Assembly (NCBI GenBank): GCA_964429905.1
Contig: CAYSDV010000009.1
Coordinates: 16,378-80,377, forward strand
DNA length: 64,000 bases
DNA from: an uncultured Treponema sp.
Lineage (GTDB): Bacteria; Spirochaetota; Spirochaetia; Treponematales; Treponemataceae
Direction: 5' to 3'
Shown: piece by piece, positions 28,621-48,479 of the stretch
How the letters are laid out: every line of letters starts with the position of its first letter
Position numbering within the stretch: the first letter of the stretch is position 1
The notes under the pieces: model-generated
What the model saw: the letters and a program-made list of their open reading frames with translations, nothing else
The model's database searches: none
What the model was told of the DNA's origin: nothing
Made by a program: the position numbers and the translations under genes

Positions 28621-28635
28621 TAAATCCCCGCAAAA

Positions 28636-33828: not shown

Positions 33829-33958
33829 AACATTCGCTCCTGTAAAACAATTTCCCTTCACAATTTATAATTGAAATATAAAACTTGAAAAAAAGAATGT
33901 ACAATACAACTTTTTTATGTTCAGTATAAATTGTGATTATAGTGAAAGTTCGATTTTA

Positions 33959-35113
33959 TTACGAAATTATTTGCTTAAATAAATACACATACAATGGTTC
34001 TGTCCGAACTTTAATTTTTGCAGTTGCTGTCATTCCTGGAACCAGGCTAATTACTTTCTTGTTCCGTTTGTCAATAAAATCAATATTATCTAAAGTTCCT
34101 GTTATTAAAAAATACGGCTGTCCATCAACTCCAAGCATGGAATCTTTTGAAATATTCAAAACGCGGCCTGTAATACTGGAAAAATTTGATGAAGGATATT
34201 TTTGAAAAGAAAGAGTAAATTCATCACCGGCATGCATTTCTGCAATATCCTGAACATTAACATTGATATAAACATTAAGTTTTCCATTAGCTTCAGGAAT
34301 AATTCTTGCAATTTTTGACTCCGAAACTATCGATTCTCCAATGTTTATTATTTGAAGTTCCTCAATATATCCATCACAGGTTGATTTTAAAACAGTTTGA
34401 TTCATCTGAAGCTGTAATTTTGCAATATTTGACTCAATTTCAGAAATAACAGACTTATTATATTCTAATTCCTCTGAATATTTAACCCGATTATCTGAAA
34501 AGAAATTCTCAAATTCAATTTTTGCACTATTAAATTTATTTTCAGCTTCCTTTAGCTCGATTTTACTTACGGTCTGCGGAAATAATTTTGTCGCTGCCTC
34601 ATATTGAAATTTACAAGATTCCATTTCAAGCTTTAATTTTTTTATTTGATTTGCAAGCGAATATATATATAATTCATTCGAATTTTGATTTTCACTCTCA
34701 TAGTTTTTCATAAAATGAAGTATAGTTTTGTCTTTTTGAACATATTCCTGATATTCTTTCAATCTTTTAAATTGCATTTCAAGTTCCTGCTTAATATAAG
34801 CATTATCAAGAACATACAACGTTTGACCGGCTATAACTTTTTGTCCGTTTTTAAATAATTTTTCTTTTATTGTTCCAGAGGTGATTGGTGTAATATAAAC
34901 CAAATCCTTAGATGGTCTGATTTGTGCATCTGATTTTATAATTACATCATAAGGTGCTATTATTATATAGATAATTATTAGTAAAATTATTCCTAAAATT
35001 ACAAATACAGATTTTTTCACAATGTCAGGAACCGAAAGTTCATAATAAGCCCGTGAGTATTTTAATTCTTTTCCTTCAAGAAAATGTATATCTTCCATCC
35101 TTATAAATTCCAA
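33959..35113 (-). CDS. HlyD-family bacteriocin secretion adaptor
   Basis: 384 aa with an N-terminal TM, lipoyl-like TSGTIKEKLFKNGQKVIAGQTLYVLD and a long coiled coil. It overlaps the ABC gene by 13 nt. Confidence 0.8.
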   Translation of the reverse strand: MEFIRMEDIHFLEGKELKYSRAYYELSVPDIVKKSVFVILGIILLIIIYIIIAPYDVIIKSDAQIRPSKDLVYITPITSGTIKEKLFKNGQKVIAGQTLYVLDNAYIKQELEMQFKRLKEYQEYVQKDKTILHFMKNYESENQNSNELYIYSLANQIKKLKLEMESCKFQYEAATKLFPQTVSKIELKEAENKFNSAKIEFENFFSDNRVKYSEELEYNKSVISEIESNIAKLQLQMNQTVLKSTCDGYIEELQIINIGESIVSESKIARIIPEANGKLNVYINVNVQDIAEMHAGDEFTLSFQKYPSSNFSSITGRVLNISKDSMLGVDGQPYFLITGTLDNIDFIDKRNKKVISLVPGMTATAKIKVRTEPLYVYLFKQIIS

Positions 35114-37230
35114 AGTTCGTAGTATTTACCTTTTAAAGCTAAAAGTTCTTTATGATTTCCACTTTCAACAATATTACCTTTATCCATAACAAAAATTATG
35201 TCTGAATTTTTTACTGTTGTAAGACGATGTGCAATCGTAATTGTTATAATCTCTTTTCCAAGCTCATCAACAACTTTTTGAAAACCTCTTTCGCTTACAG
35301 TATCTAAAGCACTAGTTGCCTCATCAAGCAAGAGTATATCTGGCTTGGATAAAAGGGCTCTTGCCAATGCAATTCTTTGCCTTTCACCGCCAGACAGGCT
35401 TGCTCCTCTTTCTGAAATTTTTGCATAATATTTATCCGGCATATCTTCTATAAAATTATCAGCCTGAGCCAACCTACATGCATACTGAACATCTTCCAGC
35501 GAATAACCAGAACGCCCCATGACAATATTTTCAAAAACCGTACCGCTGAATAAATACACTTCCTGCGGTACATAACCAATTCTGCTTCGTAAATAACCTG
35601 TATCTATATCTCTAATATCTTGATTTCCAATGAAAACACCGCCTTCATTCGCATCATAAAAATGTAAAAAAAGTTTCATTAGTGTTGATTTTCCGCAGCC
35701 GGATGCCCCGACAAAAGCTATTTTTCTGTTATCGCCAGTAGAAAAAGAAAGATCTGTAAAAACATTTCTTCTTGAGCCATACCTGAAACTTACATTTCTT
35801 AACTCAATAGGTAGAGAAATTTTTGAATTGTTTAATCCATTTTTAGATTTTAATTTTTCTTCTTCCAAGCCATAGATTTCACCAATTCTTTCCGCCGCAA
35901 CAATTGCTTCCTGTATCTGTGGCTGAAGTTCTATAAAACGTGCAAGCGGACCTGTAAAATATCCTGCAAGAGTATTAAAACTTATTAATTCACCTAAACT
36001 TAAGGTGTCTTTTAATATTAAATAGCCACCAATCCAATAAATTAAATTTGTACCAACCCCAGAAATTATACTTGTAATCAACTCCTTTACATTTCCATAA
36101 TTCCAGGCTTTTTGACCCAAATCAATATAACTTACAAGACGTCGCTCATACTCTTCTGTTGAATAACCTTGTGCATTTATGCTTTTTATCACAGGAATTC
36201 CCCCAAGCATTTCCACAAGATATGAGTTTAACTCCGCACTCTGTTCCATTTGCTCGCGATAATTCTTTACAAAAAACTTGCTGGAAGCCCAAACAACCAA
36301 GGAAGAAAGCGGAACTGTAATTATCAAAATCAAGAATAATTTGTAGCTGGTTACTCCTAAGTAAATTCCAGTAAAAACCATCATCAGCAAATCAAGCAAA
36401 GTTCCAAGTGCAATATTAGAAAGAGTTGTCCGGATCTTATCGCTATCATTAAAACGGCTTAAAATTTCTCCTGTCCTGCGGGTTTCAAAAAAGTTTAATG
36501 GTAAATATAAAACATGCTTTATGTACGAAATTGAAAGTGAAATATTTGTTTTCATTGTAAAAACACGCAAAAACTGAGACCGGCAGACTGTTAAAATCGC
36601 AGAGAAAACAGTCAGACACACAAGCGCAAAACTTAATACATGAAGGGAAGTATGAGCTTTTGAACCAATTATATCATCGACAAAAAATTTAAAATAAAGA
36701 CCGCTTAAAATACCAAACAATGAAAGAACCAAGGAAATAAGCACCATAAATGCCAATAGTCTTATATGCGCAGTAATTAATGGAACAAATTTTAATAATG
36801 CATGACCAGATTTTTGAATAACAAAATCTGGAGTTGGAGAAACAAGAATTAAATAACCTGACCAAATTTTTAAGAAATTTTCTTTTTCATAAGAAATTTT
36901 TCCAAGTGCCGGATCATAAATCCAAACGCGCTTTTCGTTTATTTTTGCAATAACAACAAAGTGATTGTTTCCATTCTGATACTGTAAATGCGCAACAAGA
37001 GGAACTGGAAACTTTTTAGAAAAAATCTGTTCATTCCCTTTTACGGCTTTTGCATCCAGATTAAGTTTTTTGGCAGCCTCAAGCATTCCTTTTAAAGATG
37101 TGCCTTCCCTGTCCGTTCCGGCAACTTCACGGATTTTCGTTATGGAAAGATGACTACCAAAGTGGCTTGCCAGCATTGCAAGACACGCCGCACCGCAATC
37201 TGTTTCATCGAATTGTTTTATGAGTTTCAT
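35101..37230 (-). CDS. peptidase C39 domain-containing ABC exporter (double-glycine leader cleavage and export)
   Basis: 709 aa. C39 catalytic Cys lies in QFDETDCGAACLAML. Walker A is GASGCGKST, the signature is LSGGERQR and Walker B is ILLLDEATS. Confidence 0.9.
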   Translation of the reverse strand: MKLIKQFDETDCGAACLAMLASHFGSHLSITKIREVAGTDREGTSLKGMLEAAKKLNLDAKAVKGNEQIFSKKFPVPLVAHLQYQNGNNHFVVIAKINEKRVWIYDPALGKISYEKENFLKIWSGYLILVSPTPDFVIQKSGHALLKFVPLITAHIRLLAFMVLISLVLSLFGILSGLYFKFFVDDIIGSKAHTSLHVLSFALVCLTVFSAILTVCRSQFLRVFTMKTNISLSISYIKHVLYLPLNFFETRRTGEILSRFNDSDKIRTTLSNIALGTLLDLLMMVFTGIYLGVTSYKLFLILIITVPLSSLVVWASSKFFVKNYREQMEQSAELNSYLVEMLGGIPVIKSINAQGYSTEEYERRLVSYIDLGQKAWNYGNVKELITSIISGVGTNLIYWIGGYLILKDTLSLGELISFNTLAGYFTGPLARFIELQPQIQEAIVAAERIGEIYGLEEEKLKSKNGLNNSKISLPIELRNVSFRYGSRRNVFTDLSFSTGDNRKIAFVGASGCGKSTLMKLFLHFYDANEGGVFIGNQDIRDIDTGYLRSRIGYVPQEVYLFSGTVFENIVMGRSGYSLEDVQYACRLAQADNFIEDMPDKYYAKISERGASLSGGERQRIALARALLSKPDILLLDEATSALDTVSERGFQKVVDELGKEIITITIAHRLTTVKNSDIIFVMDKGNIVESGNHKELLALKGKYYELWNL

Positions 37231-37252
37231 ACTTTTTTATTTAAAGAAATAA

Positions 37253-37287
37253 TTTTCCGGAGAATAAAAAAATTATTCGCCGGAAAA
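37253..37287 (-). terminator. stem-loop between precursor 1 and the exporter gene (partial terminator/attenuator candidate)
   Basis: TTTTCCGGAGAATAA / TTATTCGCCGGAAAA pairs at 14 of 15 positions with a 5-nt loop. T-rich sequence follows on the minus strand. Confidence 0.45.
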
Positions 37288-37297
37288 TGTTTTTTAA

Positions 37298-37540
37298 TTA
37301 TGACGAACTACTAGATGAACTAGAACCTGAGCCTGAACTTGAATTAGATCCTGAAGAACCACCTGAATTATTATCGCCACTTTTAGAACCACCAAAGATT
37401 GAGAAACTGCAACTAAAGCAAATACTTAAAGTGCAATCACCTCCATTAATATCCGCTAATTCATTTTCGGATAATCCATCGACAAGACCAAAACTTGCAT
37501 ATAAGTTATGATCTTCTACCGTTTTTAATAATCCAAACAC
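37298..37540 (-). CDS. double-glycine precursor peptide 1 (GTG start): Cys-rich core with a long Gly/Ser tail
   Basis: Leader MFGLLKTVEDHNLYASFGLVDGLSENELADINGG. Core DCTLSICFSCSFSIFGGSKSGDNNSGGSSGSNSSSGSGSSSSSSSS. It lies immediately upstream of the C39-ABC exporter. Confidence 0.75.
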   Translation of the reverse strand: MFGLLKTVEDHNLYASFGLVDGLSENELADINGGDCTLSICFSCSFSIFGGSKSGDNNSGGSSGSNSSSGSGSSSSSSSS

Positions 37541-37629
37541 TATTTTTTCCTTTCTTGTAATTGCGCAACTACATTTTTAATATTTTTAATTCCATACGGA
37601 ACTAATTTAAAGCTGATCAGGCTTCAAAA

Positions 37630-39135
37630 TTACAATTCATTAATATTTTTCAATTTTTCAAAAAGTTCTTCATCTCTTGTAATACTTACCAAAGATTTTA
37701 AAATATCGTCATTCGTTGACCAATAATCGGGAAAAAAACCTATCCCCTCAGCTACAGGCGAGTCTTTCATCTTAAATTGAGCCAATCTTATCGAAATTCC
37801 TGAATTTCGTAATTGATAAAAGAAAATGTTTCCATAATTAAAACACCCATATGTATTTTCACCAACTAAAATTAGTTGATTTGATTTTTCAAATAATTCT
37901 TTTGCATACGCTATAACTAGTTCAGATGAAGACGCTGTCCCTTTATCAGTAACAATAATTAAGTTTCCATTAAACTTTGATTTTATTTTTTTTCTTCTAT
38001 TTTTTTCTTTGGATAGAAATTCAATTCTTTTGTTTTTTTTATATAACTTCCTTAATTCTTCATATAATTTAATATTTTCATCATTTTCCGAATAAGTCGT
38101 TTTTTCTATTTTTTGAATAGCCTGATAAATTGCTGGAGACATTAAAAATACATTATCAAAAGAATCAAAATTTTTAATTCTAGTATCAGAAACTAAAGCA
38201 TTTAAAAATTTTGAAGGATGAGAACTATGGCCCCCTCCATTTCCTCTCAAATCAAGTATTAAATTTTGTTTATCTCTAAATTTTTTTCCTGCATTTTCAA
38301 AATCTAAAAAATATTTATCTAATTTATTTTTATAGCTAGTAAACTCCTTTGGTAAATCCATAAAAGTTCTTATACCTATATACGCAGTTGTTTTTGTTTC
38401 AATTTCTTTGTACTTTACTAAATCTTCTAAGTTCTGTTGCACTGCTACAGAATTTCTATATGTACAATTCACTTCATATTTTTTCATATCTAAATAAAAA
38501 GAGATATTTACTTCTTTAAATGAACTATCTGAAAATTTTCCAACTCTGTAAATGTTTTTTCCTTCTGAAGGATATTTAAATAAAAATTCCTTTTGAATTT
38601 TCACTGGTGCATTTATACGAAAATCAGGATTCTTTGTTTTATAAACAAAGAAATTATTATTTTTTTCTAACAAATATAAATCAGAAAAAAATACACATTG
38701 ACTTTTTACAAAATTTTTACTGAAATCTAATATATCTATAAAAAAGTGAGTATCGTTTATATATTTCGCTAAATAATTATAATAATATTCAGATATTTCT
38801 GATGTGGAAATACTTTCCCTATTTTTAAACTTATTTTCACAGTCCTTTAAAAATTTATCAGAATTAAATCCATTCAGGGACATATCATTAAACCCTGCAT
38901 AGGCAGATTCTAATAAATAAATTAAATTTCTGCAATCTTCTAAAAAATCTTCATGAGATACTTCAAACTTAAAAAATCCCTGAAAATTATATTGATCACA
39001 TAAAATATCTTTATAATCAACATTTTTTTCTGAAATTAACTTTACTTCCGCCATACAATTACCACCAATGATAATAAAAAAAAGAAGGATATTAGAAATA
39101 TCAGTAAACAAAATCTTTCTTAAGATATTTTTCAT
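37630..39135 (-). CDS. secreted S41-family (tail-specific/C-terminal processing type) peptidase
   Basis: 501 aa with a hydrophobic N-terminus. Has LILDLRGNGGGHS and IIVTDKGTASSSELVIAYAK (Ser nucleophile region). Confidence 0.65.
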   Translation of the reverse strand: MKNILRKILFTDISNILLFFIIIGGNCMAEVKLISEKNVDYKDILCDQYNFQGFFKFEVSHEDFLEDCRNLIYLLESAYAGFNDMSLNGFNSDKFLKDCENKFKNRESISTSEISEYYYNYLAKYINDTHFFIDILDFSKNFVKSQCVFFSDLYLLEKNNNFFVYKTKNPDFRINAPVKIQKEFLFKYPSEGKNIYRVGKFSDSSFKEVNISFYLDMKKYEVNCTYRNSVAVQQNLEDLVKYKEIETKTTAYIGIRTFMDLPKEFTSYKNKLDKYFLDFENAGKKFRDKQNLILDLRGNGGGHSSHPSKFLNALVSDTRIKNFDSFDNVFLMSPAIYQAIQKIEKTTYSENDENIKLYEELRKLYKKNKRIEFLSKEKNRRKKIKSKFNGNLIIVTDKGTASSSELVIAYAKELFEKSNQLILVGENTYGCFNYGNIFFYQLRNSGISIRLAQFKMKDSPVAEGIGFFPDYWSTNDDILKSLVSITRDEELFEKLKNINEL

Positions 39136-40408
39136 AATGCAACTCCAAGAAATTATTCATATTTGATTTAAAAACAGGACATTGACCATTCCCATTTTGC
39201 TTTAAATTTGGACATCCCCCCTGACAATTATATAATAGAGTGCAGTTCTTACATTTATTATCAAAAATTGCCATAGATTTAATCATGTAATCTGATTCAA
39301 TTTTTAAATTTGAAAACGACTTATCCGTTAGAGAAAGAACAGCTTTTTCTACATTACCTACATCGTCCCAGCATTTGTACATATAACCTATTGGATCAAT
39401 AACATAATTATTTAATACTTGGGCACCACAATAAAAGCAACCTTTGTTTTGTAAGTACTCATTGTGAGATGTTATTCCATACTTTTTATTCAATAATTTT
39501 ATATATTCTTTTTCATCTTCAGATTTTACTTTTATTTCTGTTTTGTCTAAACAAGAATTATAATTATCAACTATTGCATAATACACATTGAAAAAATTTC
39601 CATACTTCTTATAAAGCATATTCTTAATCTTTGGATAATCGTTTTCGTTCGTTTTATCAATATTCACACGTATACTAACATTAGGCCAGTAACCGTTGAA
39701 ATTGCAATATGTATACAACATTTCAAGATTATCCATAATTCTTCCAAAGGAATCAGGATTAGAAACATGAGGTCTTCGTCTATTATGAGTTTCTTTATCC
39801 CCATCAAGAGTAATCTGAATATTTTTTAGCCAGATAAAATCAAAATATTTAACAACTTCTTCCGTCAGTAAGTATCCGTTTGTGACTATACTTTGACTAA
39901 CATCAAATCCCGCTTCATAGGTTTCATGATTAAAATGTTTAATAAAATCTAAACACAAGAGAGGCTCACCACCATACCAATCTATTTTCAAATGTTTCAC
40001 CTTTCTTTCTTTTGCAAAATCAATAATTTTTTGTGTCAAAGACAAATCCATCATTTTTGTATTTCGAAATTTTTTCTCAAAACAATACGAACATCTAAAA
40101 TTGCAATTCATTGTTGGAGCAATTATCAAATTCATGTAATCATTTTGAGAATGCATTTTTGCCCATCTAAGCAAATATAATCTATCGAATTCATCATCTG
40201 TATATTTGGAAAGAACACCTGTCTTTTGAAACTTCGCAAGAACATCACAAGGAATATTCAATTCCTTTCCATTTTTGTAATCATCTATTGATTTCTTTAA
40301 TTCATCAGAAAGTTTAAAAAAACTGTTTGAAAGCCCTGCATATAAAAGCCAGCCGTATTTTTCACTTTTAAATAAATAGTTTCTTTTTGACCAATATAAC
40401 TTATCCAT
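39101..40408 (-). CDS. radical SAM/SPASM-domain peptide maturase
   Basis: 435 aa. APTMNCNFRCSYCFE is the CX3CX2C motif. C-terminal SPASM cysteines are CFYCGAQ...YKCWDD...CKNCTLLYNCQGGCPN. Confidence 0.85.
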   Translation of the reverse strand: MDKLYWSKRNYLFKSEKYGWLLYAGLSNSFFKLSDELKKSIDDYKNGKELNIPCDVLAKFQKTGVLSKYTDDEFDRLYLLRWAKMHSQNDYMNLIIAPTMNCNFRCSYCFEKKFRNTKMMDLSLTQKIIDFAKERKVKHLKIDWYGGEPLLCLDFIKHFNHETYEAGFDVSQSIVTNGYLLTEEVVKYFDFIWLKNIQITLDGDKETHNRRRPHVSNPDSFGRIMDNLEMLYTYCNFNGYWPNVSIRVNIDKTNENDYPKIKNMLYKKYGNFFNVYYAIVDNYNSCLDKTEIKVKSEDEKEYIKLLNKKYGITSHNEYLQNKGCFYCGAQVLNNYVIDPIGYMYKCWDDVGNVEKAVLSLTDKSFSNLKIESDYMIKSMAIFDNKCKNCTLLYNCQGGCPNLKQNGNGQCPVFKSNMNNFLELHYEKYLKKDFVY

Positions 40409-41885
40409 TTTTTGTTCCGTTTTTTATATTAAAAATTTCAAAAATATTTTCCTTATTAGCCGCAACTATCAATCCACAATCTGATTTGTAATAATCAATT
40501 CCTGAATATATAGGCTTTCCAACAATTATTTTTTCATAATTTTTTTCTAAATCTATTTTTTCATTAATTTTATCTAGTTTTACAGGAATTTCTGATAAAG
40601 ATATATTTTTTAGCGTTCCTTTAAAATACGGCCATCTTTCATTCTTTTTCTTAAAAGATTCATCTGCCAATGGACATAAATTTAAAATTTCCCTTTTCAT
40701 TTCCTGATATTTTTTTGAAATAAATCTATTTGCTTTTAATTCTGAAATAATTTTTTCATAAACTGCGTATCTAATACATGGATAGATAAGGTTATCAATA
40801 AAATGGAACAGAAATGACATACCTATGTATTCTCGCATTGCCATATTGCTAGAGAGAGTTGTTCTGCTTTCTCCAATATTGCAATATTCAAACCATTCTT
40901 TTGTGTGTAAAAATGGAAAACGAGCTCTGTCAAAGGATGTAATGTCAAAATCTCTGTAATAAAATTTTCCTGTCGGCAAATATGATTCATCTAATTCAAG
41001 CATCATGTTTTGGCAATGATTTTCCAAAACAATGCCGTGTTCAGTAAATAATTTTAGAAGAATGTTTTTTATTGGACAAAAAATATATGCCTCTATAAAT
41101 TTCAAATAACTTAGTTCAGAAGCTTTCCATGCTTTGTAAATGTAACTTTGCTTTAATAAAACCGGGCTTGAAAATGATGCAACAGAACAAACCTTATTGC
41201 AAGCATTGCTATAAAACTCTTCAGGTATTTTTCTTATCACATTTGCCAGGGTTTTAATTCTTCTGTCACCAATCAATACTCTAAATCGATTAGAAAGGAA
41301 CAATGCTCTGTCAGCCGTTATTCCAAATGCAGCAATATCTTCAAAAAAATTCAAATTATCTATATTATCTACACATTTGCAAACAATTTGACTTGAGCCA
41401 TATTGTCCTAAAGCACTGCTCCAGTCTATGTGTCGAGCACCATTTGCAACATTGTCAAAAAGGGTGACTTTCGCAATAAATTTTACATTCGTTTTTAAGT
41501 TAGTAACAAGTAATGAGCGATATGAGGAAGTTGGTGTAGCGATATAAATACTGTCGTTTTCATCTATAAATTCATATTTTCCATTAATCCAAGATTTAAA
41601 AAAATCTGCAGTTTCGGGATGAACAAAAAAAGGATAATATATTTCTTCATTCTTTGATAAAAACAGGTTTTCATCAAAGAATTTCTTTTCTTCTTCCCTA
41701 TAAAGGATAAAATCATTATCAGTTGGAACTAAAAAATAAGGAAGCGCAAATATTTTTTGATTTTCAGGAAGAAAGTCAGGCTTTAAATTCATTTTAAATG
41801 AATTTTCACGCTCTGTACCTTTATATAAATCATAATTATTTAATGTTTGTTCTGCAAATATGAAATCTTGTAATATGCAACTCAT
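40401..41885 (-). CDS. IucA/IucC-like (NIS-synthetase-like) protein, function unknown
   Basis: I prefer the start MSCILQDF (M21 of the track ORF 40401..41945), which matches the start of paralog 47859..48458. Motifs are YPFFVHPETADFF, ATPTSSYRSLLV and LENHCQNMMLELDE..GKFYYRDFD. It overlaps the rSAM gene by 8 nt. Confidence 0.45.
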   Translation of the reverse strand: MSCILQDFIFAEQTLNNYDLYKGTERENSFKMNLKPDFLPENQKIFALPYFLVPTDNDFILYREEEKKFFDENLFLSKNEEIYYPFFVHPETADFFKSWINGKYEFIDENDSIYIATPTSSYRSLLVTNLKTNVKFIAKVTLFDNVANGARHIDWSSALGQYGSSQIVCKCVDNIDNLNFFEDIAAFGITADRALFLSNRFRVLIGDRRIKTLANVIRKIPEEFYSNACNKVCSVASFSSPVLLKQSYIYKAWKASELSYLKFIEAYIFCPIKNILLKLFTEHGIVLENHCQNMMLELDESYLPTGKFYYRDFDITSFDRARFPFLHTKEWFEYCNIGESRTTLSSNMAMREYIGMSFLFHFIDNLIYPCIRYAVYEKIISELKANRFISKKYQEMKREILNLCPLADESFKKKNERWPYFKGTLKNISLSEIPVKLDKINEKIDLEKNYEKIIVGKPIYSGIDYYKSDCGLIVAANKENIFEIFNIKNGTKNG

Positions 41886-41905
41886 AAACTCACCAATATT
41901 TGAAT
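41668..41905. repeat. ~240-bp near-identical direct repeat, copy 1 (partner 48241-48479)
   Basis: Aligned by eye with one mismatch and one 1-nt indel. It covers the 5' end and upstream leader of the IucA/IucC-like gene. Confidence 0.85.
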
Positions 41906-41908
41906 ATA

Positions 41909-42190
41909 TCATATAAAATGTATATATGCAAGCAAGCATATGCAAGCAAGCATTGCAAAATTATTTGGAAACTTTAGCGAAAAAATCTGTTCGTTACCTT
42001 TTGCGGCTTTTGCGTTCAGATTTAGATTCTTTGCCGCTTCAAGCATTCCTTTTAAAGATGTTCCTTGCCTGTCTGTACCAGCTGCTTCCCGAATTTTTAT
42101 AATTGAAAGATGACTGCCAAAGTGTGTTGCTATCATTGCAAGACAAGCGGCTCCGCAATCTGTTTCATCGAATTGTTTTATGAATTTCAT
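41909..42190 (-). pseudogene. truncated C39-ABC exporter (N-terminal ~75 aa only)
   Basis: MKFIKQFDETDCGAACLAMIATHFGSHLSIIKIREAAGTDRQGTSLKGMLEAAKNLNLNAKAAKGNEQIFSLKFP parallels residues 1-75 of 35101..37230, then diverges. The junction carries a duplicated TGCAAGCAAGCAT. Confidence 0.8.
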
Positions 42191-43035
42191 TTAATTATTT
42201 GTTTAATTTTAAAATTACAGTTTGCCATATGAAAATTTGTATCTTTTAAATCGATTCCTTCCATCAATTTAATATGATTTGATGTTATTCCTATTATTCC
42301 TGCTTGAGGGTCTACTGCTACCCACCCATTATTATTATCATAAAATTCAGCCCAGGCATGAAAAGAAACCTGTTGCGAAGAATAATATAGACCTGTCACA
42401 AATTTACATGGAATTCCTCTCAATCTCATTAATGCAATAAACAAATTTGTATATTCGCCACAAGTTCCTTTTTTATTTTCTAATACCCAAGAAGCAGATT
42501 TTCCATAATTTAAACCCGAACCTATTTCTTCTGCAAGTTTACGATCGTATTTTATAACAGCAACAAGGAAATTTAATATTGCTTTTGCACTCTGAAATTC
42601 TGATAATGTTGAAAACTGTAATTTATTATATATAAACTTTATATTTTCTGCATTATAGTCTATTAAATCAGAACTTTGTAAATATTTTTTTTCTTTATCA
42701 GAAAAACTATTTTTTACATATGTACTACCTTCATTATCAGTGTTACAACTCCTTGAATTATATTTATTCATTGTTCCATGTGTTTTTAATTTTATAATTG
42801 ATTTATTCTTTTTGCTTTTTATATCTATTACTGTTTGTGGATATGAATTCAAAACTAAATAATCAAATTGATTAATTTCCAATTTATAATACTTTTCTTT
42901 ATTTAAATCTGACAGAGATTGTGCATAAACAACTAAAGTCGATGAAAACAACAAAAAAATCAAAATTTTGTAAAATTTCTTTTTAATAAACAAATATTTG
43001 CTCCTTTTTCTGAATTTTTTCATAAGTTTTTTCAA
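42187..43035 (-). CDS. secreted transglutaminase-like (Cys-His-Asp) protein
   Basis: 282 aa with a signal-like N-terminus. Has KKGTCGEYTNLFIALMRLRGIP...FHAWAEFYDNNNGWVAVDP. Confidence 0.65.
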   Translation of the reverse strand: MKKLMKKFRKRSKYLFIKKKFYKILIFLLFSSTLVVYAQSLSDLNKEKYYKLEINQFDYLVLNSYPQTVIDIKSKKNKSIIKLKTHGTMNKYNSRSCNTDNEGSTYVKNSFSDKEKKYLQSSDLIDYNAENIKFIYNKLQFSTLSEFQSAKAILNFLVAVIKYDRKLAEEIGSGLNYGKSASWVLENKKGTCGEYTNLFIALMRLRGIPCKFVTGLYYSSQQVSFHAWAEFYDNNNGWVAVDPQAGIIGITSNHIKLMEGIDLKDTNFHMANCNFKIKQIIK

Positions 43036-44296
43036 GATATTCTTTTATATTTTCTTTTATAATAGGACATTTTCGTTTATTTTCAATTGCTTCATAAGGA
43101 CAGCCACCTTGACAACTAAACATCAAAAAGCAATTTTTACATTTTTCATTAAAAATAACTTGCTGATTAATAATAAAATCAGCTTCTCTTTTTAAATTAA
43201 CTTTTTTACCATCCGCCAAGGAATAAATAGCTTTATCTTTATAACCAATATCATTGTAACATTTATACATATACCCATCAGAATCTATTACATAATGATC
43301 AATAAATTGAGCCTGACAATATCCAACACCACACTGTTTTGGATAAAAATTCTCAGAATGTAGATTATATTTTGAATTAAGTAATTGATAAAATTCTTGT
43401 TCATCTTTCCTATTAAAAGAATCCTCAGCCTGACTAAGACATGAATTATAATTTTTCACAATCCCATAATATACGTAGAAAAAATCACCATACCTTTCTT
43501 CAAAATAGTTTTTGATAAAAGGATAATCTTCCTCATTTGTTTTATCAACATTTACACGAATTGATACGAATATATCATAATTTTTTGTTTTACAAAAATT
43601 ATATAAAAGATCAATATTATCCAAAATATGAGAAAATGAATCTGGATCAGAAACATGTGGTCGCCGTTTATTATGAATTTCTTTTCGCCCATCCAATGTT
43701 ATCTGAAGTCCTTTGAGTCCAATCTTTTGAAAAAACTCTAATACTTCTTCTGTTATTAAATAGCCATTTGTAATCATAACTTGTTTTAACTCAATTTTAT
43801 TTTCTTCAGCTAAAGAATTAAAATACTTTATATGCTCCAATGCTAATAATGGTTCTCCACCATACCATTCAACTCTAATCTTATTTTTGTAATTAGATTT
43901 TGCAAACTTTATAAGCTTTTCTAAAACTGTTTTTTCCATAACACGCTTATTAAACGCATTCTTTTCGTAACAATAAGAACATCGAAAATTACAATTCAAT
44001 GTCGGTGCAATAGTAAAATTTATAGTATCCTGATTTTTTTGAACTTTTAACCAATTCAATTTATATAGCTCATCAAATTCTTCATCGGTATAATTTGATA
44101 ATATTCCAGCCTTGTAAAATGATTCTATTACATCTTGCGGCAAATCACAAATGCCTATTAAATACTCATCAATTTGATTCTTCATTTTTTCGGATAAAGA
44201 AAAAAAACTATTTGAAAGCCCTGAATAAAGCAACCATCCATATTTTTCGGATTTAAATATAAAATTCCGCTTTGACCAATATAATTTTTTTTTCAT
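42983..44296 (-). CDS. radical SAM/SPASM-domain peptide maturase (paralog 2)
   Basis: 437 aa. Has APTLNCNFRCSYCYE and C-terminal CQAQ...YKCYND...CKNCFLMFSCQGGCPY. Confidence 0.85.
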   Translation of the reverse strand: MKKKLYWSKRNFIFKSEKYGWLLYSGLSNSFFSLSEKMKNQIDEYLIGICDLPQDVIESFYKAGILSNYTDEEFDELYKLNWLKVQKNQDTINFTIAPTLNCNFRCSYCYEKNAFNKRVMEKTVLEKLIKFAKSNYKNKIRVEWYGGEPLLALEHIKYFNSLAEENKIELKQVMITNGYLITEEVLEFFQKIGLKGLQITLDGRKEIHNKRRPHVSDPDSFSHILDNIDLLYNFCKTKNYDIFVSIRVNVDKTNEEDYPFIKNYFEERYGDFFYVYYGIVKNYNSCLSQAEDSFNRKDEQEFYQLLNSKYNLHSENFYPKQCGVGYCQAQFIDHYVIDSDGYMYKCYNDIGYKDKAIYSLADGKKVNLKREADFIINQQVIFNEKCKNCFLMFSCQGGCPYEAIENKRKCPIIKENIKEYLEKTYEKIQKKEQIFVY

Positions 44297-44298
44297 TT

Positions 44299-45747
44299 TT
44301 ATTCCTTTTGTATTATTTGAACTAAAATATCATTTTGAAAACATAAAACATCATCTTGTTGTGTTTTATAATAATCAAAATTTATGTTATTATCTTTTTT
44401 CCAAACTTGAATCTTTTTAGAATAATTTTCCATAATAAAATTATTAATTTTTTGTAATTCAACAGGTATTTCTGTTTTATGTATTTTTGAAAACATTTCT
44501 TTTCCAAAACAATAATATTTCTCATCGTAAAATTGTACATCCGACATTAATTCTTTAATTTTACTTCTAATTTTGCCTCCCATCTTCTCATATATTTCAT
44601 TCATTTCATTTTTTGTAATTATGTTATTTTTCTCTGCAGAGATTAAACATGGTCGAATCAAATTATCTAAAAAATGATTAAACAAATTAATGCCAATATC
44701 TTCCCTTGCACTTGTATTAGCATAAAGAGTTGTTCTATCTGGTCTATTTTTTATATAACTATTCCACAGGTTAGGAAAAATAAATGGAAATCGGGCTCTA
44801 TCTAACGCAATTAAATCAAAATCTCTATAAAAAAACTTCCCCGTAGGGATATTTTTTTCATTTATTTCCAATAATGTATTTTGACAATGAAATTCTAAAG
44901 AAACCCCTGTCTTTACAAGCAAGTCAATAATTATCTGAAAAAGAGGATTAAATACATTATTTTCAAAAAAAATCTGAAATATTTCTCCACTGTTTTTATA
45001 ACCAATAGATAATAAAGAATCTTTATCTACAAGACTCATATACGATGCAAAACTTAAACATTTACTTTCACTATTAAAAAAATCATTCGGTATCAATCGA
45101 ATGACATTTCCAAGTGTTGAAATATATCGACTCCCAAATTTTATCTTAAATCTATTTGAAAGAATCATAGGAAATTCACCACTTATTCCAAAGGCTCCAA
45201 TATCCTTAAACACTTCTAGATTTAAATTTGATAAAACATCCGTCACAATTTTTGATTGTTCATATTGACCAGAAGCCGATTTCCAATCTATATGACGAGA
45301 ACCATTTGCGATGTTATCAAAAATAGAACATTTTACCATAAAGTATTTATCTGTATTTTCATTACGAACAATAAGCGAACGGTACGAAGAACTCGGTGTT
45401 GCAATATATTCACTATTTTCAGAACCAATAAATTTATATTTATTATTTATCCAAGACAAAAACATCTTTTCCGTAGCTGGATGTATAAAAAATGGATAAC
45501 ATTTTTGATTTTTAAAATTATGTTTTAAGTTCTCTTCAAAAAAATCAGAGTAATCTTTTTCGAATATAAACTTATCTTGCTCAATAGGTATTATAAAATA
45601 TGGTAATTTAAAAGATTCTTGATTTTCAGGCTTGTATTCATCTGCAATATTTATATAAAAAAAATCTTTCCATTCTTTTGACTCATAAAGATTATAATTA
45701 TTTAACCTTTGTTCACATTCTACAAATAAACTTAACTTTTTATTCAT
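44299..45747 (-). CDS. IucA/IucC-like (NIS-synthetase-like) protein, paralog 2
   Basis: 482 aa. Motifs are YPFFIHPATEKMF, ATPSSSYRSLIV and LEFHCQNTLLEINE..GKFFYRDFD. It ends 2 nt before the rSAM start. Confidence 0.45.
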   Translation of the reverse strand: MNKKLSLFVECEQRLNNYNLYESKEWKDFFYINIADEYKPENQESFKLPYFIIPIEQDKFIFEKDYSDFFEENLKHNFKNQKCYPFFIHPATEKMFLSWINNKYKFIGSENSEYIATPSSSYRSLIVRNENTDKYFMVKCSIFDNIANGSRHIDWKSASGQYEQSKIVTDVLSNLNLEVFKDIGAFGISGEFPMILSNRFKIKFGSRYISTLGNVIRLIPNDFFNSESKCLSFASYMSLVDKDSLLSIGYKNSGEIFQIFFENNVFNPLFQIIIDLLVKTGVSLEFHCQNTLLEINEKNIPTGKFFYRDFDLIALDRARFPFIFPNLWNSYIKNRPDRTTLYANTSAREDIGINLFNHFLDNLIRPCLISAEKNNIITKNEMNEIYEKMGGKIRSKIKELMSDVQFYDEKYYCFGKEMFSKIHKTEIPVELQKINNFIMENYSKKIQVWKKDNNINFDYYKTQQDDVLCFQNDILVQIIQKE

Positions 45748-45760
45748 TCAATTTCCTTAA

Positions 45761-45785
45761 GTGCTCAAAGAAATTCTTTGAGCAC
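45761..45785 (-). terminator. perfect 10-bp stem-loop between precursor 2 and the modification genes (attenuator or processing-site candidate)
   Basis: GTGCTCAAAG-aaatt-CTTTGAGCAC, 11 nt after the precursor stop. Confidence 0.45.
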
Positions 45786-45796
45786 TTTTTTCATTA

Positions 45797-45958
45797 TCAG
45801 CCTCCTGCAGTTGCAAAACAATAACAACCACCACCAGGAACACCACCGGTATAACAAGAACCACCAGATATGTCATTAAGTTCTGAATTTGAATTAACTT
45901 CTTCTAGTCCAAAAACATTCAAACTTCCAGCCTTTAATAAAAACACTTCTGAATCCAT
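45797..45958 (-). CDS. double-glycine precursor peptide 2 (53 aa, not in the ORF track)
   Basis: Hand translation gives MDSEVFLLKAGSLNVFGLEEVNSNSELNDISGG / SCYTGGVPGGGCYCFATAGG. SD is AAGGAGG, 7 nt upstream of the ATG. The leader is similar to that of precursor 1. Confidence 0.7.
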   Translation of the reverse strand: MDSEVFLLKAGSLNVFGLEEVNSNSELNDISGGSCYTGGVPGGGCYCFATAGG

Positions 45959-45984
45959 AAAAATGTCCTCCTTATATATTAAGA

Positions 45985-46016
45985 ACTTTTTTCAAATCCA
46001 AAAATTTGAAAAAAGT
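45985..46016. promoter_or_regulatory. 13-bp perfect inverted repeat in the precursor-2 leader (operator or 5'-UTR hairpin)
   Basis: ACTTTTTTCAAAT-ccaaaa-ATTTGAAAAAAGT. Confidence 0.45.
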
Positions 46017-46028
46017 ATTTTTAAGATT

Positions 46029-46058
46029 ATTCTACTATATATATATATATATATTGTC
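46029..46058 (-). promoter_or_regulatory. sigma-70-type promoter for precursor 2 with a (TA)8 spacer
   Basis: The minus strand reads TTGACA-ATATATATATATATATAG-TAGAAT (18-nt spacer). The TA run is at 46036-46052. Confidence 0.5.
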
Positions 46059-46092
46059 AATAAGTTTTTAATAAAAAAATAAAAAAAATAAA

Positions 46093-46131
46093 TCAATAAA
46101 AATTTCCATCAAATTGTTTTATCAGTTTCAT
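46093..46131 (-). pseudogene. 12-codon remnant of a C39-ABC exporter start
   Basis: MKLIKQFDGNFY* can be compared with MKLIKQFDETDCG of 35101..37230. Confidence 0.6.
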
Positions 46132-46139
46132 AATTATTC

Positions 46140-46259
46140 CTAAAGCAGCCGCTCACCAATTTTGGCTAGCTTTTCTTTCATGGCTTCGTCGTTTGTTACA
46201 AGAAAAATTGTTTCATTCAAGTCTTCGCCGGTTGACACTGTTCTTAATGCGTTAGGCAT
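46140..46259 (-). CDS. precursor-like small ORF 3 (39 aa, no GG site; probably degenerate)
   Basis: MPNALRTVSTGEDLNETIFLVTNDEAMKEKLAKIGERLL. It occupies the same position as precursor 1, after an S41 gene and before an exporter start. The upstream intergenic is conserved (TTTAATTCCATACGGAA.TAA.T.AAAGCTGATCAGGCTT). The N-terminus resembles MFGLLKTVEDHN. Confidence 0.3.
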   Translation of the reverse strand: MPNALRTVSTGEDLNETIFLVTNDEAMKEKLAKIGERLL

Positions 46260-46344
46260 TTTTAAGTTCCTTTTTGTTTTTGCGCAAAAACCGTTAATAT
46301 TTTAATTCCATACGGAATTAACTCAAAGCTGATCAGGCTTTTTA

Positions 46345-47856
46345 TTACAATTTATTAATATCCTTCAATTTTTCAGAAAGTTCTTTATCTCCAGTAATAT
46401 TAACAAGCGCCTTTAAAATATCTTCGCTTGTTGTCCAATAATCTGGCATTATGCCAAAACCTTCGTTGTTTTTCTCTAAATTATATGAAAACGTCCCCAT
46501 GTGTAATGCAATACCTGAATTCGGAAGTTGATAGCAGAAAATGTTTCCATAAGCCGTACATCCCATGGTATTTTCCCCTAAAACAATTAACTGTTCTGAG
46601 TGTGAAAATATTTTTTTTGCATAAAATACAGTTGATTCCGCAGATGAAGCCTTATTTTTACCTGTTAGAATTATTAATTTCCCTTCATATTTTGCTGATT
46701 GTATCTTAAGTTTGTTTTTTTTGTTATTCTTGACAACAATTTTTTTATATTCATTTTTTAAAAGTTTTTTATCTAAATCAAATTTTTCTAACAAATTACT
46801 GTTATCAGTCAGACAGTAATTTTTAAACCAAGTTTCAGCCTGAATGATAGCAGGAGATACATAGTCTATTCTGTTTTCTTCATTTAAAATTGTTTTTTTT
46901 AATTTATTCACATTATTCTTTGTTGTATTATCAGAACAATTTTTTTCTGCGTAAAAAAGATTGGATAAAAATCTAAATGTATAATAATCATTCCCACCGC
47001 CATTTGTACGCAAATCTAAAATGACACATTTTTTCTTGCCATATCTTGCAGAAACAGAACTAAGTTTTTTGTAATTTTCATCCACAATTTTTCTTAATGG
47101 ATTTGATTTTTCTAAATCAATTAAAGTTGGAACAAAAATATAAACCGAATTTCTTGTTTCAATTTCTTTATAAAGACCCAATTTATTACAAGATAAATGA
47201 ACTGTATCAATATTACACAATATTTTTCGTTGCATTCCAGAATATGAAACATTCACCCACATTTCATTTTTATTTAAACTTGCCATAGAACCAATTCTAT
47301 AAACATTTTCTCCTTCCGAAGGATATAAAAACAGATTTTCTTTTTCGATTTCAAGATTTTCACCAATACTAAAACTTTTATTATCAGATTTTTCTACAAC
47401 ATAACTATCATTATTTTTTTTAACATAAACATTTGAATACAAAACCCTGTACTTTATTATCAGCTGTTTTGCAAAATCCTTACTTTCAATACAAAAATGA
47501 GAATCCTGAATATATGGGGCTAAAAAATCATATATAAACTGGCTTAAATCAGATACGTTTATATTTTCTTTACCTATGTACAAATTCTTAAATTTTTCAA
47601 TTATCAGGTCTATTTCTAAACCACATTGTACAGCGTCATCATAGCCAGCATAAGCCGATTTCAAAAGATAAATCATCATATCTAGATCTTCTATAGCTTG
47701 ATTAAAAAAAATTTCTTCTTTAAACCATTTTTGGTAACCAAAAAAGTCACAGCGTACATCACGATACTTACACGGTTCTGATAAGATTACTTTAAAATTT
47801 GCCATACAAACTCCACATGCAATCAAAAAAACAAAAATTAACAATAGTTTTTTCAT
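46345..47856 (-). CDS. secreted S41-family peptidase (paralog 2)
   Basis: 503 aa. Signal is MKKLLLIFVFLIACGVCMA. Has VILDLRTNGGGND and ILTGKNKASSAESTVFYAK. Confidence 0.65.
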   Translation of the reverse strand: MKKLLLIFVFLIACGVCMANFKVILSEPCKYRDVRCDFFGYQKWFKEEIFFNQAIEDLDMMIYLLKSAYAGYDDAVQCGLEIDLIIEKFKNLYIGKENINVSDLSQFIYDFLAPYIQDSHFCIESKDFAKQLIIKYRVLYSNVYVKKNNDSYVVEKSDNKSFSIGENLEIEKENLFLYPSEGENVYRIGSMASLNKNEMWVNVSYSGMQRKILCNIDTVHLSCNKLGLYKEIETRNSVYIFVPTLIDLEKSNPLRKIVDENYKKLSSVSARYGKKKCVILDLRTNGGGNDYYTFRFLSNLFYAEKNCSDNTTKNNVNKLKKTILNEENRIDYVSPAIIQAETWFKNYCLTDNSNLLEKFDLDKKLLKNEYKKIVVKNNKKNKLKIQSAKYEGKLIILTGKNKASSAESTVFYAKKIFSHSEQLIVLGENTMGCTAYGNIFCYQLPNSGIALHMGTFSYNLEKNNEGFGIMPDYWTTSEDILKALVNITGDKELSEKLKDINKL

Positions 47857-47858
47857 AT

Positions 47859-48458
47859 CTAGTAAATAAAATCCTTCTTTAATGATTTTTCATAATGCCG
47901 TTCCAAAAATTGACTTATATCATTTTTAAAGACATGACATATTCGTTTATTTTCAAGAGAATGCTTTGGGCATCCTCCTTGACAACCAATAAACATAAAA
48001 CAATTTTTACAAACTTTATCAAACATTGACTGAGATTTTATAATATAATCAGACTCTGCAAGGACATTATTGATTTTTTTATCATTTAAATTATAAACGG
48101 CTTTATTCTTGATTCCGATGTCTTCCCAGCATTTATACAAAAATCCTTCTGCATCAACAACATAATTATTCAGTATCTGAACTCCACAAAAGCAGTTTCC
48201 AAACCATTGTGAATAAAAAACTTTATCCTCAATTCTATTTTTTTCATCAAAGAATTTCTTTTCTTCTTCCTTATAAAGGATAAAATCATTATCAGTTGGA
48301 ACTAAAAAATAAGGAAGCGCAAATATTTTTTGATTTTCAGGAAGAAAGTCAGGCTTTAAATTCATTTTAAATGAATTTTCACGCTCTGTACCTTTATATA
48401 AATCATAATTATTTAATGTTTGTTCTGCAAATATGAAATCTTGTAATATGCAACTCAT
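47859..48458 (-). pseudogene. chimeric ORF: N-terminus of an IucA/IucC-like gene fused to the SPASM C-terminus of a radical SAM gene (deletion scar)
   Basis: Residues 1-72 are about identical to residues 21-92 of track ORF 40401..41945. The rest (FGNCFCGVQILNNYVVDAEGFLYKCWEDIG...CKNCFMFIGCQGGCPKH...) aligns with the last ~125 aa of the rSAM/SPASM proteins. Confidence 0.8.
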
Positions 48459-48479
48459 AAACTCACCAATATTTTGAAT
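48241..48479. repeat. ~240-bp near-identical direct repeat, copy 2 (partner 41668-41905)
   Basis: See copy 1. Confidence 0.85.

Follow-up and report, generated by a model that had tools for sequence, protein, structure and literature searches.

A siderophore synthetase-like ligase paired with a radical SAM-type protein in double-glycine peptide clusters of Treponema

In this work we describe a gene cluster located on the minus strand between positions 33959 and 48458 of a 64,000-nucleotide stretch of DNA from an uncultured Treponema sp. (assembly GCA_964429905.1, contig CAYSDV010000009.1, positions 16,378 to 80,377 of the forward strand), referred to below as the window. The cluster encodes two proteins of 494 and 482 amino acids (aa), iuc1 and iuc2, which are related to the IucA/IucC-type synthetases of nonribosomal peptide synthetase-independent siderophore (NIS) assembly and are called here the ligases. 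Each stands next to a radical S-adenosylmethionine (rSAM)/SPASM protein, in the company of precursors with double-glycine (GG) leaders and of an exporter made up of a C39-peptidase/ATP-binding cassette (C39-ABC) protein and an HlyD-type protein. We propose, with a probability of about 0.6, that this is a Treponema locus of bacteriocin type or for a peptide made by the ribosome and modified after translation (RiPP), whose leader would dock on a RiPP recognition element (RRE) and whose core would be cross-linked, ligated at a carboxylate, probably that of the C-terminus, and exported, the ligase and its RRE-bearing partner being the class-defining core. That the system is of RiPP type and has the ligase as a functional, peptide-directed member is very probable; that the ligase acts specifically on the C-terminal carboxylate is a tentative suggestion, which we consider rather doubtful.

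The presence of a NIS-synthetase-like ligase in a peptide cluster is a pairing found in no described class of peptide natural products, and the system is a candidate for a new RiPP class. A search of the full-text literature, most subscription journals lying outside its scope, returned no paper linking IucA/IucC/NIS synthetases to RiPPs or to ribosomal peptide modification, and no relevant paper on S41 peptidases in RiPP clusters. It must be noted that the export logic and the rSAM proteins are ordinary and the ligase is not, as an earlier note on this DNA had held; what is unusual is that there is a ligase, that it would depend on an RRE carrier, and that an S41-like protein accompanies it.

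Gene content of the locus

The open reading frames (ORFs) listed in the earlier note are all present on the minus strand at the positions that it gave, as confirmed by ORF listing and translation. The main ones are as follows:

33959..35113, minus strand: HlyD-type membrane-fusion (accessory export) protein, 384 aa (Pfam HlyD_3, 36.6 bits; TIGR01843, E=3e-36, below its cutoff)
35101..37230, minus strand: C39-peptidase/ABC exporter, 709 aa (Peptidase_C39, 142.6 bits; ABC_membrane, 149 bits; ABC_tran, 108 bits)
37298..37540, minus strand: precursor 1, 80 aa, GTG start (translation; weak match to the Bacteriocin_IIc leader)
37630..39135, minus strand: S41-like protein, 501 aa (Peptidase_S41, 55.7 bits)
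39101..40408, minus strand: rSAM/SPASM maturase 1 (rSAM1), 435 aa (Radical_SAM, 50.5 bits; SPASM TIGR04085, 47.8 bits, cutoff 27)
40401..41885, minus strand: NIS-synthetase-like ligase 1 (iuc1), 494 aa (PF06276, 30.8 bits, cutoff 25.2)
42983..44296, minus strand: rSAM/SPASM maturase 2 (rSAM2), 437 aa (Radical_SAM, 61.3 bits; SPASM TIGR04085, 46.6 bits, cutoff 27)
44299..45747, minus strand: NIS-synthetase-like ligase 2 (iuc2), 482 aa (PF04183, 26.0 bits, cutoff 25, residues 36-235)
45797..45958, minus strand: precursor 2, 53 aa (translation; leader motif in common with precursor 1)
46345..47856, minus strand: second S41-like lipoprotein, 503 aa, intact (Peptidase_S41, 43.1 bits; alignment)

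The iuc1 and rSAM1 genes overlap by 8 nt (40401-40408) and a gap of 2 nt (44297-44298) separates iuc2 from rSAM2, distances already given in the earlier note and which follow from the coordinates. The exporter encoded at 35101-37230 reached 604.7 bits with TIGR01193, a peptide cleavage/export ABC transporter model (cutoff 523.85), and its predicted function is cleavage of the leader behind GG with export of the peptide. Its gene is trailed by that of HlyD in every complete related locus. The elements of double-glycine export were all found: a C39-ABC protein, an HlyD_3 domain above the Pfam cutoff and leaders ending in ..DINGG and ..DISGG.

The NIS-synthetase-like ligases

The assignment of the 482/494-aa proteins to the IucA/IucC type, proposed in the earlier note, is marginal by sequence and was confirmed by structure. 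Each ligase narrowly clears one of two Pfam models, IucA_IucC (PF04183) in the case of iuc2 and the FhuF-like C-terminal domain (PF06276) in the case of iuc1 (iuc2 reached 21.4 bits with PF06276, below the cutoff), and the NCBIfam search yielded no model matching the ligases or the precursors. An AlphaFold2 model of iuc2, built from a 30-sequence family alignment, had a mean predicted local distance difference test (pLDDT) value of 89.4 and a predicted template modelling (pTM) score of 0.89. When it was compared with the PDB by Foldseek, NIS synthetases took every one of the top 50 places (E from 1.4e-13 to 3.9e-11; TMq 0.47-0.57, TM about 0.55), with NcdF, IucA, IucC, DfoC, DesD, AsbB, AcsD, AlcC and SbnC among the matches at 11-16% identity. 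As judged from this model, the proteins are very divergent, shortened homologues of the NIS-synthetase (IucA/IucC) fold. The profile and structure searches led to the NIS-synthetase superfamily and to no RiPP-linked family, and the remark of the earlier note that the pairing fits no named RiPP class still stands.

The two ligases are 41% identical to each other and have all invariant motifs in common. Across 30 members of the family, down to 34% identity, 54 alignment columns are invariant, including E285-H287-Q289-N290 (H-C-Q-N) and R308-D309-D311 (R-D-F-D; iuc2 numbering), which HMMER aligns with ELHGQN...RDHD in SbnC and with the corresponding IucC motif. Also invariant are S120-S121-R123 (S-S-x-R), K139 and R151; these may correspond to S279/R281/T282, K293 and R305 of the AcsD-ATP structure, with a K-to-R spacing of 12 in both. 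The H-x-Q-N...R-D-x-D residues, a motif for nucleotide and Mg binding, and some 50 other invariant positions form the pattern of an active enzyme, and the ligases are probably catalytically active.

The rSAM-type partner and its inactive homologues

Both rSAM1 and rSAM2 carry CNFRCSYC (CxxxCxxC), and rSAM1 has the sequence GGEPLL. In the AlphaFold2 model of rSAM1 (pLDDT 87), residues 10-87 adopt a beta3-alpha3 arrangement, followed by the radical-SAM barrel and the SPASM region, and the N-terminus is predicted from this model to be an RRE-type leader-binding domain. The best PDB match of the model was the thioether synthase CteB (5why, E=7e-20), followed by anSME, TigE, SuiB and ChlB. With respect to named maturase families, of which Clo7bot, TIGR04463 and CefB were the best and which also included PapB and SCIFF, all scores fell below the cutoffs, those of the best ones far below; the top scores were 187.2 and 210.1 bits with Clo7bot (TIGR04334), whose cutoff is 600. 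The sequence family of rSAM1 comprises more than 2,600 matches, and identity is at least 49% inside the clusters described here and drops abruptly to 33-39% outside them. Those more distant relatives belong to T. bryantii and to Bacteroidales, and one Bacteroidales case has a C39 exporter and neither ligase nor S41 gene.

Four related loci (L005/L006/L014, L008, L009 and L025) carry beside the ligase a homologue that is 25-28% identical and has lost both CxxxCxxC and GGEP. These pseudo-rSAMs (about 405-440 aa) still have the SPASM cysteines and an N-terminus that resembles an RRE (W.K.N...W.LY.G..G.F). L008 has in addition a true rSAM without RRE, together with five different precursors. In all pseudo-rSAM loci the invariant residues of the ligase are kept, the alignment including P0012, which is the L005 ligase. 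What stays constant is therefore the combination of ligase and RRE carrier, which argues that the ligase needs this partner to engage the leader peptide and that the ligase defines the system, radical chemistry being optional. The earlier note had taken the rSAM as the core and the IucA-like protein as an add-on, an order that must be reversed since four loci keep the ligase beside a partner without radical-SAM motifs.

Distribution and genomic context of the ligase family

A word-indexed search of 5.8 billion protein clusters found 34 relatives of the ligases, all unnamed or annotated as 'hypothetical protein [Treponema sp.]'. An exhaustive profile search of 1.84 billion representatives delimited a tight core of about seven representatives at 50% identity, beyond which scores fall steeply to heterogeneous, weak IucA-like proteins. 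Genomic contexts were taken from exact-protein-sequence look-ups in public assemblies, from one-genome-per-species contigs and from Joint Genome Institute (JGI) metagenomes, and the related loci were annotated by BLASTP against the window proteins. A single-sequence pattern scan of the one-genome-per-species contigs gave nothing, and a profile-based rescan of them gave four loci.

Every locus long enough to be judged contained, one after the other, the ligase, an rSAM-type gene, one or more S41-like genes together with one or more GG-leader precursors, C39-ABC and HlyD. About 15 distinct loci, from metagenome-assembled genomes of Treponema and Spirochaetaceae, have this gene set, and the ligase gene usually overlaps the rSAM-type gene or lies within a few bases of it. 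The conservation of the ligase-rSAM pairing in other genomes, on which the proposal of the earlier note was made to depend, is thus borne out by some 15 independent Treponema/Spirochaetaceae contigs. No siderophore biosynthesis, receptor or uptake gene was found in these loci, and all of them carry peptide-cluster genes. The system also occurs in a cultured organism, T. bryantii (GCA_900111035.1), whose contig FOFU01000007.1 starts inside a ligase-like ORF, of which its last 29 codons are present, followed in order by an rSAM gene (57% identical to rSAM1), a precursor with the predicted core DINICFRTTCSCNVRTDCTCNVKTNNTGY, S41, C39-ABC and HlyD.

Two side observations concern these contigs. Directly past HlyD, the T. 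bryantii contig (L026, 6486-11117) encodes a BtrH_N-domain protein and a 1194-aa polyketide-synthase-type protein (KS-KR-PP-binding). Another contig (L010, CAVIQW010000036.1), with a ligase 84% and an rSAM 96% identical to those of the complete window module, had been binned as Paratractidigestivibacter, an actinobacterium; this assignment is most likely a binning error rather than a transfer.

Outside the core, the context changes. The second-tier relatives P0061 and P0195 lie in non-peptide contexts, with PTPS-like and SDR genes beside P0061. P0030, the most divergent core member (34% identity), is also found outside a peptide cluster (L007, 2655-4916), between a GH77 4-alpha-glucanotransferase gene and an ORF whose translation we take to be that of an esterase with a CBM48-like N-terminal domain; this context may reflect an ancestral, non-RiPP role of the ligase family. 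Since P0061, P0195 and P0030 lie outside peptide clusters, the peptide association is specific to the window-type clade, and the idea of a broad multi-phylum RiPP class was dropped because P0061 and P0195 have no peptide-cluster context. As a separate observation, some distant relatives (P0081, P0099 and P0033) are fused to ThsB-type TIR (1222 aa), Zeta-toxin kinase (1577 aa) and cytidylyltransferase (656 aa) domains, respectively, and divergent IucA-like domains may also serve conflict or defence systems.

Precursors and the likely modification site

Precursor 1 has a leader ending in ...FGLVDGLSENELADINGG and a core, DCTLSICFSCSFSIFGG, which is followed by a Gly/Asn/Ser linker and a poly-Ser C-terminus (...GSGSSSSSSSS). 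Its orthologues in L003, L011, L015, L018, L019 and L022 have ATG at the position of its GTG start. Precursor 2 has the leader ...FGLEEVNSNSELNDISGG and the core SCYTGGVPGGGCYCFATAGG. Translation showed in both precursors the common leader FGL..(D/E)..S.EL.DI.GG described in the earlier note, and both window cores contain three Cys.

We collected 22 precursors from the window and the related loci. Their leaders are of the type ...NLY..FGL.D.LSE.EL..I.GG in true-rSAM loci and of the type ...LLEVS.E.LD.V.GG in pseudo-rSAM loci. The cores are hypervariable: 4 of the 22 are without Cys, 7 without Asp/Glu, 16 without Lys and 3 without Ser/Thr, and one, IYFGPYAGPFGR, has no Cys, Asp, Glu, Lys, Ser or Thr at all. 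The short cores of L005, L009 and L025 end in a common [TS]GG[QM] (DSTSGNMTGGQ, SNCGTSGPLTGGQ and ECCGNNGSHSGGM), the first of them being identical in two divergent loci. Most C-termini come after flexible Gly- or Ser-rich tails. A Gly/Asn/Ser linker with a poly-Ser tail ending in Ser or Ala is present in 8 of the 22, including precursor 1, and is missing from precursor 2 and 13 others. Given that no side chain is universal among the 22 cores, the C-terminal carboxylate is the sole carboxylate common to them, if all are substrates.

S41-like lipoproteins

An S41-like gene is present once or twice in every related locus and is as conserved as the rSAM gene. The membership listed in the earlier note holds for the genes it named, and has to be extended by the S41-like lipoprotein, which was overlooked there as a constant member. 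These proteins have an N-terminal hydrophobic, signal-like segment with a Cys, judged by eye as a lipoprotein signal, and are predicted to be exported lipoproteins. The DLRxNxGG motif and the Ser-containing ASSSE motif were retained in all 13 copies considered (window and L001-L011). At G..T.GK, the site of the catalytic Lys in C-terminal processing peptidases, the same 13 copies have Cys, Ser or Ala instead (e.g., GENTYGC). A comparison of the product of 37630-39135 with PDB sequences gave only a weak match, to the uncharacterised 4ghn, which is also without that Lys. The S41-like proteins may be non-canonical proteases or binding proteins, and they are candidates for an immunity function, by binding or cleaving the C-terminal tail of the peptide, or for a factor of C-terminal trimming after export.

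Proposed pathway and alternative explanations

In the pathway that we propose, the GG leader (FGL..D..SE.EL..I.GG) would dock on the RRE of the CteB-like rSAM/SPASM partner, as the fold of the latter suggests. By homology, the window rSAMs would then introduce radical cross-links in the Cys-rich core, most likely Cys thioethers. The ligase, translationally coupled to the rSAM, would use the same leader-docking partner and would activate a carboxylate with ATP as an acyl-adenylate, joining it to an amine or a hydroxyl. The activated group would most probably be the C-terminal alpha-carboxylate of the peptide itself. From what is known of their families, C39-ABC and HlyD would strip off the leader behind GG and carry the product out of the cell. 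The S41-like lipoprotein might act on the C-terminal tail outside the cytoplasm, in producer immunity or in trimming, which is a weak part of the proposal.

Several points weigh against this pathway. To our knowledge, every NIS synthetase characterised so far has a small acid as the substrate that it adenylates (citrate, alpha-ketoglutarate, succinyl derivatives) and not a peptide. The Pfam matches of the ligase are marginal, and PDB sequences contained no match when searched by hmmsearch with the family's N-terminal half, so that the equivalence of S-S-x-R, K and R with the ATP-phosphate residues of AcsD is suggested by spacing. The argument for the C-terminus makes three unproved assumptions, namely that every precursor of a locus is a substrate of the ligase, that cleavage takes place at the first GG past the leader motif, and that the activated carboxylate is that of the peptide and not that of a small acid. 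On the P0010 contig a precursor and an S41 gene separate the ligase and rSAM genes. The S41-like proteins are seemingly without the canonical catalytic Lys, which makes a trimming role doubtful. Finally, it is gene content, folds, motif conservation and synteny that have been shown; every chemical step is inferred, and the substrate and the nucleophile of the ligase entirely so.

Among the alternatives, the one that survives best, although we consider it improbable, is that the ligase uses ATP to adenylate citrate or another small polycarboxylic acid, which it then attaches to Ser/Thr hydroxyls or Lys amines, on long precursors to the poly-Ser tail, giving a carboxylate-rich and possibly iron-binding tag as a spirochete counterpart of the siderophore-microcins. 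The known members of the NIS fold all activate small acids, and AcsD reportedly esterifies citrate to L-serine. A poly-Ser tail, present in 8 of the 22 precursors, is a hallmark of class IIb microcins (PMC11634061, PMC6071977). However, the other 14 precursors have no Ser-rich tail, three cores of L008 are without Ser, Thr and Lys, and the short cores of L005, L009 and L025 conserve a C-terminal motif and not the position of a hydroxyl. In addition, none of the loci has genes for citrate or siderophore biosynthesis or uptake.

It is far less probable that the ligase makes a free small molecule (siderophore-like or a polyamine amide, for instance) and shares only its location or its regulation with a bacteriocin cluster that is otherwise of the usual sactipeptide or ranthipeptide type. 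Such a product is the sole demonstrated function of the NIS fold, and distant relatives do lie in small-molecule contexts (PTPS-like and SDR genes for P0061; GH77 and, from sequence only, the esterase-like ORF for P0030). Within the clade, however, the ligase stands in a peptide cluster in every judgeable locus, usually overlapping or near the rSAM-type gene, and no other gene of small-molecule biosynthesis or uptake is conserved with it. Its persistence, with invariant catalytic residues, beside a dead, leader-binding partner would be hard to explain unless that partner were needed. Least probable of all, a slight chance in our view, is a non-catalytic ligase that would assist the precursor or the rSAM as a structural chaperone or scaffold, or would serve in self-protection: with 11-16% identity to NIS synthetases of solved structure the family has diverged strongly, its members are about 100 aa shorter, and dead enzymes do occur in the system as pseudo-rSAMs, but H-x-Q-N...R-D-x-D and some 50 other positions are invariant, unlike those of the partner, which lost its dispensable motifs.

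A more far-reaching form of our proposal, speculative and in our opinion improbable, would be that of a new RiPP class in which a siderophore-assembly fold was recruited to ligate onto the C-terminal tail of a ribosomal peptide, either an amine or polyamine at the alpha-carboxylate or citrate-type acids on poly-Ser. The rSAM-derived partner would be chiefly a leader-docking subunit, and the Ser-tailed products would be spirochete 'Trojan-horse' peptides made by chemistry unrelated to that of the siderophore-microcins.

Comparison with known systems

With the NIS synthetases (IucA, IucC, AcsD, DesD, AsbB, AlcC, SbnC and NcdF) the ligases have in common the fold, the Pfam domains and the H-x-Q-N/R-D-x-D motif, and the same mechanism is therefore expected, in which an acyl-adenylate is captured by an amine or alcohol. 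They differ in length (482-494 aa against 540-620 aa), in sequence, with identities of 11-16%, and in having no NCBIfam equivalog. Siderophore genes are absent from their vicinity, which is occupied instead by a leader-peptide/rSAM/exporter cluster, and the likely peptide substrate would be unprecedented for the fold.

The window rSAMs resemble the sacti- and ranthipeptide maturases (CteB, Clo7bot TIGR04334, TIGR04463, CefB and PapB) in CxxxCxxC, SPASM and the N-terminal RRE, and the Cys-rich window cores, the GG leader and the C39 exporter add to the likeness with those systems. In contrast, the window rSAMs score below the cutoffs of the named families, a ligase and an S41-like lipoprotein are extra constant members, the radical-SAM motifs are lost in four related loci, and 4 of the 22 cores are free of Cys.

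Class IIb microcins are defined in part by a Ser-rich C-terminus ending in Ser, to which a siderophore is attached before export (PMC11634061, PMC6071977). MccE492, H47, M and I47 share with our system a GG-type leader, ABC and HlyD-type export and, in precursor 1 and seven relatives, a Ser-rich C-terminus; the mode of work would also be alike, with an ATP-dependent C-terminal tag added before export. The published definition of the class further includes fewer than two Cys, a signal peptide in the first 15 residues ending in GG/GA and an adjacent small transmembrane immunity ORF (PMC11634061). The window precursors differ in that their leaders have 33-34 aa, they contain at least three Cys, an rSAM is present and the host is a spirochete and not an enterobacterium. 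No small immunity ORF was noticed between the window genes, in a search that was not exhaustive, and no homologue of MceC, MceD, MceI or MceJ is recognisable in the window locus, where every gene has another Pfam assignment. The resemblance to class IIb microcins is one of function and not of membership.

As described in two reviews (PMC12250964, PMC11962472), MccB (ThiF-like), the peptide aminoacyl-tRNA ligases (PEARLs), the ATP-grasp ligases of graspetides and the lasso cyclases activate, under the guidance of a leader or an RRE, a carboxylate of the peptide, either C-terminal or in a side chain, which is then captured by a nucleophile. They provide a functional analogy to the role proposed for the ligase, with unrelated folds, none of which is of the IucA/IucC type. 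A T. denticola cluster with a 'bacteriocin-type signal domain' (PMC11879956) was considered as a relative and rejected, its proteins being larger and the portion of that text searched naming no radical-SAM or siderophore-type component.

Module history and neighbouring genes

The remaining features of the locus are as follows:

37541..37629, minus strand: conserved intergenic segment between the S41 gene and precursor 1 (second copy at 46250-46340)
41909..42190, minus strand: truncated exporter gene, 93-aa C39 N-terminal fragment (Peptidase_C39, 75.6 bits, profile positions 3-72 of 133)
42187..43035, minus strand: transglutaminase-core protein, 282 aa, with N-terminal hydrophobic segment (Transglut_core, 84.9 bits)
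46100..46340, minus strand: module-3 debris, exporter N-terminal remnant and a fusion ORF of precursor start and S41 C-terminus (three-frame translation)
47859..48458, minus strand: in-frame deletion fusion, 199 aa, in which the beginning of an iuc1 copy (~72 aa) is joined to an rSAM SPASM C-terminus (translation)

The locus consists of three paralogous clusters joined and eroded by recombination, one complete, one nearly complete and the third debris; repeats and fusion ORFs bear out the three recombined modules recognised in the earlier note. Its statement that module 3 is decayed applies to the 47859-48458 fusion and to the debris at 46100-46340, and does not apply to the S41 gene at 46345-47856, an intact 503-aa ORF and the exception to the erosion. 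For the debris, L005, L008 and L009 served as references, with their S41 C-termini and the N-termini of their precursors. Its exporter remnant amounts to 12 codons, MKLIKQFDGNFY and a stop, and its fusion ORF (MPNALRTV...DLNETIFLVTNDEAMKEKL...) joins a precursor start to an S41 C-terminus. The 47859-48458 ORF aligns solely to the C-terminal third of the rSAMs, has no Pfam match and is a non-functional remnant. The exporter fragment at 41909-42190 is a recombination scar with 84% DNA identity to 37006-37230, the 5' end of the intact exporter gene. A direct repeat of 234 nt, 100% identical, is present at both 41668-41901 and 48241-48474 and takes in the iuc1 5' end with the region upstream of it. 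The paralogous sequence around the repeat is just 71-84% identical, which suggests that recombination or gene conversion took place very recently, or that the assembly is at fault here.

The conserved intergenic segment is probably the promoter and 5' leader of precursor 1. Its two copies lie downstream of both S41 genes and are alignable over about 95 nt, with a 41-nt core that is 93% identical; an Rfam search of the window gave no match, the segment thus belonging to no Rfam family. Duplicated upstream segments likewise precede both precursors in L005. The transglutaminase-core protein had no BLASTP match in any related locus, with all nine window proteins as references, and is a module-2 accessory that is not conserved.

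The cluster is bordered by a flavodoxin-like lipoprotein gene (33208-33861) and, from 48711, by AddB-/AddA-type nuclease/helicase genes. The G+C content is 26-28% in the biosynthetic part (38001-48000) against 32-40% in the flanks, which fits an acquired or fast-evolving island. The gene at 33208-33861 (minus strand), directly downstream of that of HlyD, encodes a member of the flavodoxin_4 family with a lipoprotein-type signal (…LILSGAVC…), and an exported flavodoxin-like protein is unusual. It was rejected as the rSAM reductant on account of this signal sequence and of its absence from other loci. A two-component system at 27949-29901 was likewise rejected as a cluster member, not being conserved with the cluster.

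Significance

If the ligase acts on a peptide, it would be the first NIS-synthetase fold in ribosomal peptide maturation. Genome mining would then gain a further enzyme that defines a class, and peptide engineers possibly a new way of ligating peptides at the C-terminus. The loci with a dead rSAM are a natural experiment in which an enzyme has been reduced to a leader-binding adaptor. Given a cultured carrier, T. bryantii (GCA_900111035.1), and compact modules of three to six genes, the hypothesis is directly testable. Only Treponema of gut and rumen have the system, a group in which hardly any work has been done on secreted peptides or on competition, and its Ser-tailed products suggest an iron- or uptake-linked delivery strategy outside the Enterobacteriaceae.

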